A stretch of DNA of 64,000 nucleotides from Phyllosticta citribraziliensis. Taxonomy: Eukaryota. Every line of letters begins with the position of its first letter. Positions within the stretch are counted from its first letter, which is position 1. The position numbers and the translations under genes were made by a program. The notes under the pieces are model-generated. The model worked only from the letters and a program-made list of their open reading frames with translations, ran no database searches and was not told the origin of the DNA. The DNA lies in contig NW_027117338.1 in the NCBI RefSeq assembly GCF_038025025.1, positions 1,116,001-1,180,000 on the forward strand. The letters are read 5' to 3'. Shown piece after piece: positions 37,834 to 48,028 of the stretch.

Positions 37834-39081
37834 TCACAAGGGCTGTGGGAACTTGAGCGTCTCAATCTTCTCGGGATAACGCAGCCCGGCCTGCTTGCGC
37901 ACCTCGTCCATGACCTCCATGATGGTGACACTCTCGGCCAGGTCCTCGAACCTGCCCTCCTTCCTGCCCTCGAGCAGCGCCGTCGCTGCCTCGTCCGCCT
38001 CCCAGAACATGCCCTGACCTTCGCCCTCAGGTTGGAAGGCATCGCCAAAGCCGTTGCGCCATCCGCTTCCCTTGCCCGGGCCCGGCTGCGGCCACTCGCG
38101 CTCGTCCACCGTTCCGTCGTCGAGGATAAGGCGCGTCTTGCTCGGACGGTACAGTGGCGGGAAGATCTGGATTTCGCCCTTCTCACCCTGCACGCGACAC
38201 GCGGGCCCGGCAATACTGTCGCCGGTTGGGTTTGACGAGTAGCGGATGCCAGTCGTAGCGACGGCATGGACATCGCCAGTCTTGGGGCGAGGGAAAGTGA
38301 GCAGTATGGTTGTGAGCTCGTCGGCAGCACCAGTGGGGGTGAAGCGCTTGAGCGACGAAAGAACCGACGGCGGCTTGCGGTCTGCCGGCGGGAGCGTCGT
38401 GTAGAGGGTTTGGAAGACCCAGGTCAACGAGTAGATGCCCAGGTCGAGGAGAGCACCGCCTGCCAGATCTGGGTTTACCATGCGATTCTTGCCATCAGCC
38501 ATGGCGTTGTAGGGGTCGAGGGCGTGGCTCGTGTCGGCAGAGACGCGTTGGATCTCGCCGAGCTTGCCAGACTGAATCGTCTCGCGGACATAGATGGACA
38601 GGGGGAAGTATCGGGTCCAGACGGCCTCCATGAGGAAGAGGTTCTACAATCGTCAGACTGACAGTTGCAGAATCACCGCACGCAAGCATACCTTTTCCTT
38701 GGCTATCCTCACCAGCTCCTTGAGCTGGTCGGCGTTGACGGTGAATGCCTTTTCGCACAGGACATTCTTGCCGGCCTCCAGACACAGCCTTGCATTCTGA
38801 TAGTGATGCGAGTGGGGGGTTGCAATGTAGATAATGTCGATGTTGGGGTCGGTGACGAATTCTTCGTAGGAGCCGTAGGCTTTGGCGGAGGAGGGAGCAC
38901 CGACTTCCTTGAGGAAATCAGAGGCACGAGAGGCGCTCGAAGAGCTGGCGGCGGCGACGACGGTGTGCTTGACGTTGGTCACTCCACGGGTGGTAGGGTC
39001 GACGAGGAGGTCTCTGGTGAAGGTCAGGGCAATGCCTCCGGTGGCCAGGATGCCCCAGCGGATCTCTTTGGGCGCAGACAT
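37834..39081 (-). CDS. Gfo/Idh/MocA-family NAD(P) oxidoreductase (dihydrodiol/D-xylose dehydrogenase-like)
   Basis: Exons 39081-38692 and 38643-37834. Motifs IRWGILATGGIA, YIATPHSHHY, VLCEKAF, LMEAVWTRYFP, GGALLDLGIY. Confidence 0.93.
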
Positions 39082-39313
39082 GATTAGGAGGGAGGGATTG
39101 AAGAGGGTGAGAAGTGGGATAGGGTCAATTGGGCGGACGGGCAAGAGTTTATCACAATGGGAGCTCTCCACTGGAGAAGTACAAGTACCCCGCCAGAGAG
39201 CTCTGACTGATGGAGTAATGACGAAAGTGGGGCTCAGCGGCCGTGCGGGAAATAACTTCCCAAATCTGAATGCTTTCTTCTATCAACACCACGCCCATCC
39301 CACCCTCACCACT

Positions 39314-40333
39314 TCAACCATTGCGGAACAGGTAACTGTAGGCGTTGAGCGCCGGCGCGCCACCCAAGTGTGCATATAGCACGCGGCTGCCCTCTGGAAA
39401 CTCGCCGTTCCGGATCATCTGGATCATGCCGTCCATCGACTTGCCCTCGTATACGGGATCCGTCAACATGCCCTCGGTCCTGGCGCACAGCCTGATGGCC
39501 TCCATCGTGCCCTCGTTGGGCAGTCCGTACTCGGGCCCGCCGAACCGCGTGTCCAGCACCACGTCGTCCTCTGTGATTTCGCGCCCCAGCTCGACCAAGT
39601 CTGCCGTGTTCCTAGCGATGCGGAGAACCTGCGCGCGCGTCTTCTCGGGCTTCGCGCTGCCGTCGATGCCAATGACCTTGTTGGCGCGTCCGTCGGCCGC
39701 GAATCCTACAATCATGCCCGCCTGCGTCGACCCCGTCACGGCGCATACGACGATGTAGTCGAACTTGAACCCCAGCTCGGCCTCCTGTTTCCTGACCTCC
39801 TCGGCGAATCCCACGAAGCCCAGTCCGCCCTTGGGATGCTCCGAGCAGCCCGCCGGCACGGGAAATGGTTTGCCGCCTTTCGAGCGTACCTCGTCCATGG
39901 CTGCCTCCCAGCTGGGCCGGATGCCAATGTCGAATCCTGCCGCGTCGAGGCGCACGTCAGCGCCGAGGATGCGCGACAGCTCAATGTTGCCAACCCGGTC
40001 GTAGACGGCGTCGTGGTAGTTGACCCAATTCTCCTGCACCAAGACGCAGGACATGCCCAGGTGTGCCGCTACCGCTGCGACCTGGCGCGTCTGGTTCGAC
40101 TGGATCCCGCCAATCGACACGAGCGTGTCGTAGCCTCCTTCAATGGCATCCGGCACAATGTACTCGAGCTTGCGCGTCTTGTTGCCGCCGAACGCCAGTC
40201 CCGAGTTGCAGTCCTCGCGTTTGGCGTAGATTTGCACCTTGTTGCCCAGTTCCGCCGACAGTCGCTTGAGATGTTGGATGGGCGTCGGCCCGGAGAAGGT
40301 GAGGTCGTACTTGGGGAACTTGTCGAGCTTCAT
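39314..40333 (-). CDS. acdS: 1-aminocyclopropane-1-carboxylate (ACC) deaminase
   Basis: Intronless, 339 aa. PLP lysine motif [28 protein letters not shown]; the diagnostic Glu (TDPVYEGKS) and Leu (AHLGG) that separate ACC deaminase from D-cysteine desulfhydrase. Confidence 0.97.
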
Positions 40334-41147
40334 GGCGGGGTAGGTGCGGGTGGTAGGCGTGTGGATAGGTACCGTGGAATTGGGTTCAACTATCTACCAT
40401 TGGCAACCCGTTCCTCTTCATATGTTTCTTCTGGACGCCATCCAGTGTCGGCTACAGCCGGCCGAATGCGTCATGCGACAGTCTTCGGCTTCACATTGAC
40501 CTTGCCGACCGACATCGCAGAGCTGTTGATGTGCCAGACTGTCGTGACTGTGGCTTTCAAGTCAGCGAATTATCCGAGCTAGTGATCTTCAGGCCCACCG
40601 CCAGCGTCTCCATGCTGGACAACGCCCAATTCTGGAATAAAGCGTCAGCGAGAGGGCAAGCTGACCGTGATAGCTTTCAGACTTCCCATTCAATCGTCCA
40701 TCATTAAACAATGGTTGCGATTGAGGATGCACCAAAAAATGTCAGGAGCAGGAACATGCGGGCAGCTGCTAACTTTTGCTGATAAGCACGAGTGGGTCCT
40801 GCGACTTCAAGGGTCCGGCCCTATCTATCACCACTGCCGGATACGGCAATCCAGGCGATCGCCCTCTAAAACTAGACGCCGCGCAGCAACGTCCGTGGCT
40901 TGGTGCTTGATGCCACAGTCGAGGAACACAGAAGAGTGCGAGAGCAGATGGGGAGCACTCGTGCACTTCACCAAGCAAATGGTAGGAAGGAATGAAGCTC
41001 TTTCGCCGAGAGTACCCAGGAGCAATCGAGCACTTACGTGAAGCATTGAAGCCCCAGATTGTGGAATCCCAAAAGTTGTTTGCGTGCTACAAATTTTGCT
41101 GTCCATCCTGTGCCCCCCTCAAAGTATCTCAACCCCCTTTCTCCTGA

Positions 41148-43235
41148 TCAATCCAAATACAGCGCCGTCCTGACCACGCGCTCCCACAAGCCCCCTGACA
41201 ACAGCTCGTCGCTCCACTCGCCGCGCCACCCCACGATCCCGTCCGGCCGCACCAGCACTGCGCCGTCGATACTGACGCCGCACGCCGCAGCCCACGCGCC
41301 GTCGCGGTCGTAATACGTTTCCATGCCTCCGCCCTTCCCCTCATCAACCCCCCTCTCCCCCTGGACAACCACGCCCCTGACCAGCCCGCCAACCACCTTC
41401 TCCCACCCCGCTCCGCTCTGCCGCGCAATCAGGAGCAGGCGGTCCAGCGGCAGCAGGTCGCGCAGTGCCACCGCCTTGTGATCTTCTCTGGCTGCTTCTT
41501 GGACCTGCCCGTCGTTTGAGTTTTGATGCTGCCGCCGCACAACCCACGCATGCGGCAAATGGTGGCCTGGCAGCGTCGACGCGGCGAAGACGTCGCTGCG
41601 GAACGCGCCAGTCGAGTCGAGCTGCCCGCCCTCGAGCGGGTCGCGCGCGACGGCGATGGATGGCGGTAGAGGAGCGCGGCCGTTTGGAGTCGCGTCTGCC
41701 TCTGCGCCGACACTGCCATTCGATTCTGCCCCTTTCGAGACAGCCTCGCTGCTCGTCGCCGGCGCCACTCTCTCCGCAACGCTGGGATAGAACCAGCCGA
41801 CCTCGGTTCCGGGGGCCTTGAACTCGCGATCTAGGACATGCAAAGCGTCGGCGACGGCAGCGCGCTTCTCTGCGTAGGCAGGGTGACGCGGGTCGAAGAA
41901 GGCATCGACGGCGGCGCGGTTGCGGGACACCGTGGCCCCGTCGGTGCCCGGCTCGAGGCCCAGCGCGGCGTCGAGGACGAGCGAGTGCGCGCGCAGGTTG
42001 TGCAGCGATGAGAGGCCAACGGCGCGGCCGACGGGGAGGCGCTCGGTGGTGTAGGAGGAGAGGAGGGGGAATAGGGAGTCTTCAGTCGCCGCCGCGGCCA
42101 TGGTTGCTGTAGCGCCTTGTTCTTGTCCGTCGAGCAGCGAGCGCAGCGCCGCGGGCGGATCGAGGGCCATGGCCAGCTTCCACATCAGATTGAAGGCATC
42201 CTGAATGCCCGTATTCATGCCCAGTGCGCCCCACGGCGGAATCTTGTGCGCCGCGTCGCCAGTAAGGAAGACGCGCCCGCGCTGGCCGGCGCGGTACGTC
42301 GCGGCGTAGATGGCGTTGACGTTCCAGTGTGACAGACTGAGCACGTCAATGGATACGTCGTCAGTGATTCCCAGAGTGTCCAGGATGCGACGAGCCAGCG
42401 CCGAGCGGTCAAAGTGCGCCGGGTCGTGAGCAGTTGGAGAGCACACAAAGACCCATTCTTCATCTTGCGGCTTGTCTGAAAGGGGCCAGGGCCCGATTTG
42501 GTACATGAAGCCCGTCCTGGTGCTCCCGCCACGGTCCGGGTGTGTCAACCAGGTGATGAAGTTGTTCGGATCCGGGTGAGTGGCCCGAAGCGGCGCGCGT
42601 ATGTGCGCCGTCACCATGTTGTAGATGTCACGCTCGCCGAGCCAGGGGACGGAGAGGGCCGACGTGAAGGAGCGTCCACCGTCGGCGCAGATGACGAACT
42701 TCGCATGGACGGTTTCTTCTGGGGAAGACGGGCCCCTGTCGAGGTGGCGTACTTGAAGCGTGACAGTGTCTTGGTCTGCAGAATCAGACAGAGACGTCAC
42801 CTCTGCCGAGTACTTGATGGCCGTGGGATTCAGCTGCTCGGCTCTGCGTTTGAGGATGGGTTCCAGTCTGATTTGGGGGAGAATGGCATAGCGGGTCGGC
42901 CCATGCCTGGCATACTCTTCAGCATCGGGGCCGCCTCCCCAAGCATAACGGGATGCTATCTCTTTGCCCCTTGGGCCAATTTCGGTGTACCATGATGTCC
43001 GTCCTGCTATTTCGGGTGGAGCTGAGACGGCGTAGACCTCCTCTTCGATTCCCATGACACGAAAGATCTCCGTGGTCCGCTGATTGATCCCACATGCCTT
43101 GGGATGTATCGCCGTCCCAGGGTGTCGTTCGAACAAGACATGGGGTATGTTTCTGAGAGTCAGTAGAATCGAACAAGACAGCCCGATGGGTCCGCCGCCG
43201 ATAATAGCAACTGGTTGTACGCTAGATCTAGACAT
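41148..43235 (-). CDS. FAD-dependent aromatic monooxygenase (PheA/TfdB, FAD_binding_3 family)
   Basis: Intronless, 695 aa. GGGPIGL Rossmann motif, HPKACGINQRTTEIFR, ICADG, VFLTGDAAHKIPPWGALGMNTGIQDAFNL.WKL, PG.HLPHAW, GAVLVRPDG. Confidence 0.9.
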   Translation of the reverse strand: MSRSSVQPVAIIGGGPIGLSCSILLTLRNIPHVLFERHPGTAIHPKACGINQRTTEIFRVMGIEEEVYAVSAPPEIAGRTSWYTEIGPRGKEIASRYAWGGGPDAEEYARHGPTRYAILPQIRLEPILKRRAEQLNPTAIKYSAEVTSLSDSADQDTVTLQVRHLDRGPSSPEETVHAKFVICADGGRSFTSALSVPWLGERDIYNMVTAHIRAPLRATHPDPNNFITWLTHPDRGGSTRTGFMYQIGPWPLSDKPQDEEWVFVCSPTAHDPAHFDRSALARRILDTLGITDDVSIDVLSLSHWNVNAIYAATYRAGQRGRVFLTGDAAHKIPPWGALGMNTGIQDAFNLMWKLAMALDPPAALRSLLDGQEQGATATMAAAATEDSLFPLLSSYTTERLPVGRAVGLSSLHNLRAHSLVLDAALGLEPGTDGATVSRNRAAVDAFFDPRHPAYAEKRAAVADALHVLDREFKAPGTEVGWFYPSVAERVAPATSSEAVSKGAESNGSVGAEADATPNGRAPLPPSIAVARDPLEGGQLDSTGAFRSDVFAASTLPGHHLPHAWVVRRQHQNSNDGQVQEAAREDHKAVALRDLLPLDRLLLIARQSGAGWEKVVGGLVRGVVVQGERGVDEGKGGGMETYYDRDGAWAAACGVSIDGAVLVRPDGIVGWRGEWSDELLSGGLWERVVRTALYLD

Positions 43236-44560: not shown

Positions 44561-45028
44561 TTAGCGCTTGCGCTCGAAGTATCCGCTGGTGCTCATGATG
44601 GCGACGCTCTGATCCATGAGGACTTCGCCAACCCAGAGGTAGTTGTCAAGCCACTTTTTGATGTTGTCGGACTGGGTCAAGCTCTCGGGCTTGACACTAG
44701 GTCTACGAGTCCCAGAAAAGCGGGAGGAAGTCAGCGGGCTGTTGCAGTTGATGGTGGGGTGAGATGGCGAGGTGAGAGGAGAGGTCAGGCAGCAGACGGG
44801 AGGGCATACGTAAGGCCGGTCGAGCGCTTGACGCCAGCGAGGAAAGCGGAGACTGGATCATGTTAGAGCGAGCGAGGTCGGGAGAGGGTTTGATTAATGG
44901 AGGCGCACAGAGAACGGCGTCAAAGGCGTAGTGGGTCAGTCGTCCGAGCTACAGGTGAGGTGGTGAGCGCGTGGTGTTTTGGAAGCCGGCGGCGGGTGGA
45001 GGCGGGTGGAGTGACAACTTACGACCAT
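44561..45028 (-). CDS. 76-aa DUF1748-family small protein (absent from the ORF track)
   Basis: Exons 45028-45023, 44948-44909, 44852-44810, 44702-44561, all GT-AG with branch points. Product: MVLGRLTHYAFDAVLFSAFLAGVKRSTGLTPSVKPESLTQSDNIKKWLDNYLWVGEVLMDQSVAIMSTSGYFERKR. Confidence 0.88.
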
Positions 45029-46150: not shown

Positions 46151-48028
46151 ATGGCCAACGCCCTCGACCACCTCCATGCCGGCCGCACTCGCGTTGAGTG
46201 GCTGTCGCAGCTCAACACCGAGTACCGCCCCGCGAAGAACTACCGCCGCACTGCCATCATTGGCACCATTGGTGCGTTCGCTTTGCGGATTCCCTCCTGC
46301 TTCCTGCCGCTTGCAAGCTAACCCAATCCCAAACAGGCCCCAAGACCAACTCCGCCGAGAAGATCAACCTTCTCCGCAAGTGTCAGTTCCCCCCAAAGCT
46401 TTCCGCGTCACTGAGCTTCAAAGCTGACACAATCCAGCCGGCCTGAACATTGTTCGCATGAACTTTTCCCACGGTTCATACGAGGTAAGGAGAAGCTGAC
46501 TAGTAGCATGCTCATCATGCTTCGAGGAGAAAAAGGCAAAATGGCTGACCTCTGTACAGTACCACCAGTCCGTCATTGACAACGCCCGCGAGGCCGAGCG
46601 CACCCAGACTGGCCGCCCTCTCGCCATTGCTCTCGACACTGTAAGCTCCTCGCTCTATTCTCCACTTTCAATTCCTAACTCCCCAACAGAAAGGCCCCGA
46701 GATCCGCACGGGCAACACCGTTGACGACCAGGACCACCCCATCAGCGCCGGTGACGAGCTCATCATCACCACCGACGACAAGTATGCGACGGCCTGCGAC
46801 AACAAGATCATGTACGTCGACTACAAGAACATCACCAAGGTGATTGAGGTTGGCCGCATCATCTTCGTTGACGACGGTGTCCTGTCCTTCACCGTCGAGG
46901 AGATTGTCGACGACAAGACCCTGCGCTGCAAGTGCGTCAACAACGGCAAGATCTCGTCCAAGAAGGGTGTCAACCTGCCCAAGACCGACATTGACCTTCC
47001 CGCCCTCTCCGAAAAGGACAAGAGCGACCTGAGATTCGGTGTCAAGAACAAGGTCGACATGGTCTTTGCCTCGTTCATCCGCCGCGGCAGCGACATCAAG
47101 GCCATCCGTGAGGTCCTTGGTGAGGATGGCAAGGAGATTCAGATCATCGCCAAGATTGAGAACCAACAAGGTGTCAACAACTTTGACGAGATCCTTAGGG
47201 AGACTGACGGTGTCATGGTCGCCCGTGGTGACCTTGGTATTGAGATTCCTCCCGCTCAGGTCTTCATCGCCCAGAAGATGATGATCACCAAGTGCAACAT
47301 TGCCGGCAAGCCCGCCATTTGCGCTACCCAGATGCTCGAGTCCATGACCTACAACCCCCGCCCCACCCGTGCTGAGGTTTCCGACGTTGGCAACGCCGTC
47401 CTCGACGGTGCCGACTGCGTCATGCTTTCTGGCGAGACTGCCAAGGGCAACTACCCCCAGGAGGCTGTCTCGATGATGAACGAGACTTGCCTGCTCGCCG
47501 AGGTTGCCATTCCCTACCTCAGCGCCTTTGACGAGCTCAGGAAGCTCGCCCCCGTCCCCGTCCCTACCACCGAGACTTGCGCCATGGCCGCCGTCTCTGC
47601 CTCTCTCGAGCAGAACGCCGGTGCTATCCTTGTCCTGACCACCAGCGGTAACACTGCCCGCCTGGTCGCCAAGTACCGCCCCGTCTGCCCCATCATCATG
47701 GTCACCCGCAACGCTGCTGCTGCCAGAGTACGTTTGTCCCCTGAATGAAGTCTACATTTTTCCTAACAAAACATAGTATTCTCACCTGTACCGCGGTGTC
47801 TACCCCTTCTACTTCCCCGAGGAGAAGCCCGACTTCAAGAATGCTCCTTGGCAGGAGGATGTCGACCGCCGTCTCAAGTGGGGCATCATGAACGCCATCA
47901 AGCTCGGCGTTCTCAACCGCGGCGACGCTGTTGTCTGTGTCCAGGGCTGGCGCGGCGGCATGGGCCACACCAACACCCTCCGCATTGTGCCCGCTCAGGA
48001 GGACCTCGGCCTCGATCAGGAGGCTTAA
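46151..48028 (+). CDS. PYK1: Pyruvate kinase
   Basis: Exons 46151-46271, 46337-46381, 46438-46484, 46560-46640, 46690-47727, 47777-48028. Motifs [53 protein letters not shown]. Strong C-ending codon bias. Confidence 0.98.

Follow-up and report, generated by a model that had tools for sequence, protein, structure and literature searches.

An intact, transcribed ACC deaminase gene of probable proteobacterial ancestry in Phyllosticta citribraziliensis and across the Botryosphaeriales

The acdS gene of Phyllosticta citribraziliensis is best explained as an intact, transcribed, and fungal-resident ACC deaminase gene of beta/gamma-proteobacterial ancestry that is old and order-wide, a reading to which we assign a probability of roughly 0.88. 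The gene lies in the window analyzed here, which is the whole stretch of 64,000 nucleotides taken from contig NW_027117338.1 (assembly GCF_038025025.1, positions 1,116,001 to 1,180,000). ACC deaminase (EC 3.5.99.7) is a PLP-dependent enzyme that cleaves the cyclopropane ring of ACC, from which ethylene is directly formed in plants, to give alpha-ketobutyrate and ammonium, and it is the best-studied microbial route to lower plant stress ethylene. A preliminary description of this DNA had proposed a bacterium-to-fungus transfer. The bacterial ancestry is supported by the sequence identities and trees, whereas the transfer turned out to be neither recent nor specific to this fungus.

The gene is read from the minus strand, where the coding sequence and the PLP-binding lysine are found at the following positions:

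39314..40333, minus strand: acdS coding sequence, 339 codons plus a TGA stop, intronless (open reading frame, TIGR01274 match, and RNA contigs)
40178..40180, minus strand: codon of Lys52, the PLP-binding lysine (Lys51 in Pseudomonas numbering; alignment and the residue list of PMC4048297)

The intronless open reading frame of 339 aa that had been described was borne out, as the frame runs from an ATG start to a TGA stop with zero internal stops and the RNA contigs are unspliced and collinear with the DNA. The product matches the Pfam family PALP (PF00291) with 152.9 bits and the NCBIfam equivalog TIGR01274 (ACC_deam) with 628.4 bits against a cutoff of 392, the latter over nearly its full length (query residues 3-338 on model positions 2-336 of 337). 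In the NCBIfam scan of the product, the models for D-cysteine desulfhydrase, CuyA, and XcbE all stayed under their own cutoffs. D-Cysteine desulfhydrase (DcyD) shares the PALP fold with the query and falls in the 40-50% identity range, but the query keeps Glu296 and Leu323 and scores 230 bits against the DcyD model, whose cutoff is 429. The top match among solved structures is chain 1rqx_A (606.9 bits, labelled 1-aminocyclopropane-1-carboxylate deaminase), with chain 1f2d_A (454.2 bits, labelled ACC deaminase) below it; we take the former to be the Pseudomonas enzyme and the latter the yeast enzyme.

The 338-aa AcdS of Pseudomonas syringae (P0455) was used as numbering reference. It is identical to the query at 278 of 339 positions with one gap, and its residues K51, S78, Y294, E295, and L322 correspond to K52, S79, Y295, E296, and L323 of the query, which are invariant across a 14-sequence alignment of close relatives. 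In the sections of Nascimento et al. 2014 (PMC4048297) consulted here, these five residues serve as the criterion for a true AcdS, and it is stated there, citing Todorovic and Glick, that an E295S/L322T swap turns the Pseudomonas AcdS into a desulfhydrase. With all five published key residues conserved, the catalytic signatures are intact, as had been claimed, and the peptide stretches quoted in support are all present and identical or near-identical in 1rqx or the P. syringae AcdS. The window gene is a member of the ACC deaminase family with the PALP fold (fold-type II PLP enzymes) and the key residues, and its activity is predicted from the sequence. Direct reading of the minus strand further confirmed the eukaryotic start context and the lack of a Shine-Dalgarno sequence: the start reads CCCGCC ATG AAG on the coding strand, and the pyrimidine-rich 25 nt before the ATG contain no AGGAG-like run.

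The surroundings of acdS are fungal on both sides, with the flanking genes within 232 and 814 bp. The following features were located around the gene:

37834..39081, minus strand: GFO/IDH/MocA oxidoreductase gene, the downstream neighbor (PF01408 and PF22725 in two different frames)
38644-38691, minus strand: 48-nt intron of the GFO/IDH/MocA oxidoreductase gene (GTATGC...CTGAC...TAG, with CTGAC as the branch site)
41148..43235, minus strand: FAD-dependent aromatic-ring hydroxylase gene, 695 aa, the upstream neighbor (PF01494 with 231 bits, and PF21274)
44564-44857, minus strand: open reading frame with a Mitofissin domain (domain scan)
46645-47745, plus strand: pyruvate kinase fragment, split across frames (domain scan)

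A split MFS transporter was also detected farther out in the domain scan of 33.0-47.5 kb. The Mitofissin-domain frame and pyruvate kinase are ordinary eukaryotic housekeeping genes and thus confirm the fungal context. The hydroxylase gene is, like acdS, intronless, and it lies in a GC-rich stretch (window GC of 0.66 at 41-42 kb).

Among the 80 bacterial loci closest to the query, at least 58 have a divergent Lrp/AsnC reading frame directly upstream of acdS; the frame taken at each locus was the longest divergent one starting no more than 400 nt upstream of acdS, which was present in 74 of the 80. The remaining 16 of these 74 upstream frames are probably wrong picks in GC-rich DNA, so that 58 of 80 is a lower bound. 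The window acdS lacks the divergent upstream Lrp/AsnC regulator that defines the bacterial acdR-acdS unit, and the position of a bacterial acdR is taken by the FAD-dependent hydroxylase gene. The missing acdR/Lrp neighbor of the preliminary description was likewise corroborated on the wider scale, as none of the 69 reading frames scanned in 33.0-47.5 kb (65 stop-to-stop frames of at least 90 aa plus 4 scanned individually) carries an Lrp/AsnC domain.

The GC profile of the window has no break at acdS. Its GC3 is 0.83 (0.73-0.79 in the neighbors), and its codon usage correlates with that of the fungal neighbors at 0.72 and with that of bacterial acdS genes at 0.79 (RSCU correlation). Composition was considered as a signal of transfer and rejected, as GC3 and RSCU separate acdS neither from its fungal neighbors nor from bacterial acdS.

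Transcription was assessed with the Logan contigs of four public runs (X1, X2, X10, and X11) that were aligned to 38600-41400. Two transcribed regions outside the coding sequence were delimited in this way:

39273..39313, minus strand: 3' UTR, minimum extent (contig ends at 39273 in X2, 39275 in X11, 39304 in X1, and 39318 in X10)
40334..41022, minus strand: transcribed upstream region (X1 contig unbroken over 39304-41022; X11 contig to 40537)

In all four runs, the contig of the GFO/IDH/MocA neighbor skips exactly 38644-38691, from which it follows that the runs contain spliced RNA; the spliced fungal neighbors invoked by the preliminary description are thereby substantiated for this gene. 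The X1 contig of acdS (1719 nt, 39304-41022) has one difference and no joint, and the X2 contig (1113 nt, 39273-40338) has zero differences and no joint, the two deriving from one organism and two studies. Two RNA-Seq runs of one study, labelled plant metagenome, contain acdS contigs of a relative that is about 96-97% identical. One of these runs shows 34 differences across 39318-40353; the other shows 54 differences, together with indels upstream, across 39275-40537. For an intronless gene, contigs of an RNA library are by themselves indistinguishable from DNA carry-over. The acdS contigs are taken as RNA because of the spliced neighbor in the same runs and the uncovered intergenic bin at 39164-39257, in the gap between acdS and the downstream gene, which has zero cover in all four runs. 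No RNA contig in the four runs joins acdS to either neighbor, which is expected if the transcripts are separate and is silent on linkage in the DNA. Contig depth is unusable as a level of expression.

With contigs spanning the reading frame from RNA-type runs of two studies, acdS is transcribed in the recipient. The transcript is read as a discrete and unspliced one whose 3' UTR measures about 40 nt and whose 5' end is uncertain. The X1 contig extends 689 nt upstream of the ATG, and the X2 contig of the same organism ends 5 nt upstream (40338), beyond which X2 has low-depth pieces only. The transcription of 40334-41022 could reflect a 5' leader that is long or has alternative forms, or else an independent transcript from upstream, as the contigs cannot place the start.

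One explanation of such a gene is contamination or mis-assembly, by which a piece of bacterial DNA would have been joined to a fungal scaffold. Only the bacterial look of the protein speaks for it, and we give it next to no chance. There is no composition break and no acdR, both flanks are fungal at the short distances given above, the same gene is present on contigs of 1.7-3.1 Mb in other species, a one-residue insertion described below occurs only in eukaryotic copies, and transcript contigs come from two studies. The fungal flanks, the contigs of the relatives, the insertion, and the transcripts together refute this explanation. The preliminary description had already argued against simple contamination, and the spliced neighbor, the megabase-scale orthologue contigs, the eukaryote-type start, and the discrete transcript contigs exclude it. 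Moreover, acdS is linked to an intron-bearing gene and has orthologues in related Botryosphaeriales, as is found for a resident gene.

The best database matches of the AcdS protein are those of Phyllosticta citrichinensis (99%) and Phyllosticta capitalensis (95% and 94%). Identities amount to 91% for Macrophomina, 89-90% for Botryosphaeria, 88% for Diplodia, 87% for Aplosporella, and 82% for Saccharata. Orthologues are present in seven named Botryosphaeriales species on contigs of 0.39-3.1 Mb and span four or more families of the order. The protein is furthermore 88% identical to that of Punctularia, 87% to a Nothophytophthora protein, and 85% to that of Peniophora, and proteins of Burkholderiaceae, Hydrogenophaga, Xenophilus, and Pantoea (83-86%) are interspersed among the eukaryotic matches. 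The identity to the AcdS of Lampropedia, Ralstonia, Curvibacter, Variovorax, and Pseudomonas is 82-87%, and at the nucleotide level the closest bacterial genes are 71-78% identical. To the typical fungal enzyme (Aspergillus sclerotioniger), the protein is 55-56% identical, in agreement with the earlier claim that it is closer to the bacterial than to the typical fungal enzymes.

The query thus resembles the AcdS of beta- and gammaproteobacteria in its length (±1 residue), in its identity level, in its catalytic residues, and in the PALP fold family. It differs from them by an additional residue that follows Leu-Thr-Phe close to the N-terminus, by the lack of a divergent acdR/Lrp gene, by its eukaryotic start context, and by its monocistronic fungal transcript. 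The typical fungal ACC deaminases (Penicillium citrinum, Trichoderma asperellum, and Aspergillus) share the reaction and the fold family with the query, but they are proteins of about 350-365 aa with an N-terminal extension that form a separate clade (100/100). The best 120 matches to the Aspergillus enzyme include Eurotiomycetes, Sordariomycetes, Orbiliomycetes, and some Agaricomycetes, and no Botryosphaeriales are among them, although members of that order may lie beyond these 120. According to the consulted part of PMC4048297, the typical fungal enzyme is reported to matter in the interaction of Trichoderma with plants.

Phylogenetic trees were built from three selections of sequences. An overview FastTree comprised 141 rows (121 database-match proteins plus 20 outgroup or typical fungal rows), and here the 17 eukaryote-type sequences formed one clade with an SH-like support of 93 within the bacterial radiation. 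A careful tree (IQ-TREE, LG+C20+F+G4 PMSF) was based on 64 rows picked from about 160 sequences after near-duplicates had been thinned, consisting of 25 eukaryote-type, 34 beta/gamma-proteobacterial or unnamed, 1 alphaproteobacterial, and 4 typical fungal rows. In this tree, whose bootstrap had not fully settled, the 25 eukaryote-type rows constitute one clade (100/99) that is nested in the proteobacterial sequences. Its sister is a group of Xenophilus, Pseudorhodoferax, Variovorax, and Acidovorax (90/78), and the typical fungal clade (Aspergillus/Penicillium/Neurospora-type) lies outside (100/100) on a separating branch roughly 1 change per site long. The maximum-likelihood phylogeny that the preliminary description had proposed as a check therefore places the query inside the beta/gamma-proteobacterial AcdS radiation and not with the typical fungal clade.

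A second careful tree contained 48 rows (30 eukaryotic-type plus 18 bacterial or unnamed). The split between eukaryotes and bacteria is supported by 99/95 and was found in 98% of 200 bootstrap trees. Saccharata is basal, the Dothideales form one group with Taxawa and Aplosporella, and the oomycetes are monophyletic (100/99) among the fungal copies. Punctularia, Peniophora, Fomitopsis plus Daedalea, Phyllosticta, Botryosphaeriaceae, and the oomycetes emerge from a polytomy. The Botryosphaeriales are not monophyletic in the free maximum-likelihood trees of 64 and 48 rows. In AU tests, monophyly of the Botryosphaeriales (p 0.141) and a single clade of all fungal copies with the oomycetes as sister (p 0.11) were not rejected, both groups having been named after the tree was seen. 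Further clade members were named through sequence clusters, namely Aureobasidium spp., Delphinella, Neodothiora, Zalaria, and Lasiodiplodia as well as Fomitopsis schrenkii, Daedalea quercina, Phytophthora spp., Peronospora spp., and Plasmopara. The eukaryote-only clade is hence composed of Botryosphaeriales, Dothideales, four basidiomycete genera, and Peronosporales oomycetes; Punctularia, Peniophora, and Fomitopsis/Daedalea are presumably Agaricomycetes of three orders. A derivation of the polypore genes from within the Botryosphaeriaceae, considered because Lasiodiplodia shares a cluster at 90% identity with Fomitopsis and Daedalea, was rejected, as the 48-row tree gives Fomitopsis plus Daedalea their own branch of the polytomy.

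These trees and identities bear on the age of the gene. A recent bacterial transfer confined to this Phyllosticta lineage would fit a gene that is intronless and up to 87% identical to bacterial proteins. It is scarcely credible in view of the orthologues of 82-95% identity on megabase-scale contigs in at least four Botryosphaeriales families, of a nucleotide identity to bacteria of only 71-78%, and of the 64- and 48-row trees, in both of which the eukaryotic copies are nearer to the query than any bacterial one. The order-wide orthologues and both careful trees refute a transfer private to this Phyllosticta. As the nearest relatives are other eukaryotic copies and the bacterial nucleotide identity is so low, the transfer is old and not private; it is older than Phyllosticta and plausibly as old as the Botryosphaeriales.

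The opposite extreme is vertical inheritance, where an ancient eukaryotic acdS paralogue was lost elsewhere and still looks bacterial through slow evolution. An ancient common origin of the typical fungal and the bacterial AcdS is indeed proposed in the consulted part of Nascimento et al. 2014 (PMC4048297). Vertical descent of the window gene nevertheless appears highly unlikely, for the eukaryotic clade is nested within the beta/gamma-proteobacterial sequences instead of being their sister, the distribution is patchy, and the copies of oomycetes, ascomycetes, and basidiomycetes are, with mutual identities of 85-90%, too alike for vertical descent. The lowest identity quoted inside the eukaryotic clade is the 81% between the query and Aureobasidium pullulans.

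The eukaryotic clade is furthermore marked by a shared insertion of one residue, which is located in the window as follows:

40292..40294, minus strand: codon of Ser14, the insertion after Leu-Thr-Phe (alignment; marks the eukaryotic clade)

The extra residue is present in 17 of the 121 database-match proteins, and exactly those 17 form the eukaryotic clade. It is also present in 10 of 11 further clade members obtained by profile search, the exception being Taxawa. The insertion after Leu-Thr-Phe was found in none of the 80 closest bacterial loci (species-representative genomes), and no named bacterial protein with it was among the best 120 matches when a profile of the eukaryotic clade was searched against a collection of 5.8 billion proteins. 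An 84-aa Paraburkholderia fragment was considered as a bacterial member of the eukaryotic clade and rejected, since it is without the insertion and of the ordinary bacterial type; it is 89% identical to a Burkholderiaceae protein versus 82% to the Zalaria-like sequence that shares its cluster. The Taxawa tesnikishii protein (P0429, 340 aa) stands within the eukaryotic clade beside the Dothideales and is without the insertion; either the residue was lost secondarily or the indel is shifted.

We tentatively propose that the Burkholderiales-type acdS entered eukaryotes once and then moved between Dothideomycetes, Agaricomycetes, and Peronosporales oomycetes that share plant and wood habitats, and we hold this at a little short of even odds. 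The proposal rests on the well-supported eukaryote-only clade, on the shared insertion, and on cross-phylum identities that equal those within an order (90.3% between Lasiodiplodia and Fomitopsis, 90.6% between Lasiodiplodia and the query). The same pattern would result from a donor lineage that has not been sampled.

Separate uptake of acdS by Botryosphaeriales, Dothideales, basidiomycetes, and oomycetes, each from related and unsampled bacteria that bear the insertion, is possible, although we would sooner bet against it. A eukaryote-only clade is also expected if the donor lineage is absent from the databases, and the recipients all live on plants or wood, habitats that are rich in such bacteria. 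Bruto et al. 2014 is said to be devoted to acdS transfers and to carry the words 'Frequent, independent transfers' in its title, with which separate uptake agrees. Actinobacteria, Betaproteobacteria, and Gammaproteobacteria are relayed as donors in the consulted part of a review (PMC8227670), which also attributes to Bruto 2014 a total of 65 acdS homologues in fungi and oomycetes. Against separate uptake stand the absence of the insertion from the 80 bacterial loci and from named bacteria among the best 120 profile matches, and the support of the eukaryotic clade (100/99 and 99/95). If a single entry is true, it would recast the published frequent and independent transfers, for this subclade, as one entry followed by spread from eukaryote to eukaryote.

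The bacterial origin of acdS in the genus Phyllosticta is already in print. Nascimento et al. 2014 (PMC4048297), in the part consulted, describe Proteobacteria-like acdS genes of bacterial origin in Guignardia citricarpa CGMCC3.14348, Macrophomina phaseolina MS6, Aureobasidium pullulans AY4, Punctularia strigosozonata, Fomitopsis pinicola, and Phytophthora spp. Guignardia citricarpa is Phyllosticta citricarpa in the NCBI taxonomy, and strain CGMCC3.14348 is filed under that name. The query clusters with exactly the genera of this published set and belongs to the same lineage, with nothing essential different. A 2024 survey of 829 fungal genomes, as far as its consulted part goes, again lists AcdS among the prokaryote-derived genes. 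Among the papers listed in a literature search, no title or abstract opening deals with ACC deaminase in Phyllosticta or Botryosphaeriaceae. Added here are the transcript evidence, the loss of acdR relative to bacterial loci, and the single eukaryote-only clade with its shared insertion. Saccharata, Aplosporella, Diplodia, Lasiodiplodia, Delphinella, Neodothiora, Zalaria, Taxawa, Peniophora, Daedalea, Peronospora, and Plasmopara are added as carriers.

Taken as a sequence of events, a bacterial acdS would have been acquired and kept as an intronless, separately transcribed fungal gene, in the course of which the divergent regulator acdR would have been lost and a eukaryotic start context come into use. 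The N-terminus of AcdS has no signal peptide, and the enzyme should therefore be intracellular. There it would act on ACC that is imported from plant tissue or synthesized by the fungus itself, and the benefit may consist in nitrogen and carbon gained from ACC, in a damping of host ethylene, or in both. Catalytic activity and any advantage for the fungus are both inferred. The presence of the gene suggests that Phyllosticta, Macrophomina, Botryosphaeria, Diplodia, and Lasiodiplodia may be able to consume the ethylene precursor of their hosts. As the Botryosphaeriales are pathogens of fruit, leaf, and wood as well as endophytes, the use of ACC could bear on latency and on the timing of symptoms.

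Two further groups of proteins were observed among the relatives. Several AcdS proteins from metagenomes (P0016, P0017, P0019, P0022-P0024, P0028, and P0032) are 360-362 aa long and do not have the insertion. Their N-termini extend by about 22 conserved residues beyond the usual start; either this stretch is genuine or the start was called wrongly. Their place in the trees is with P0035, close to Hydrogenophaga-type bacterial sequences. In the 976-aa protein of Zalaria obscura (P0498), the AcdS part comprises residues 636-976 and follows 635 other residues; this deposited entry is probably a fused gene model and less probably a real fusion.
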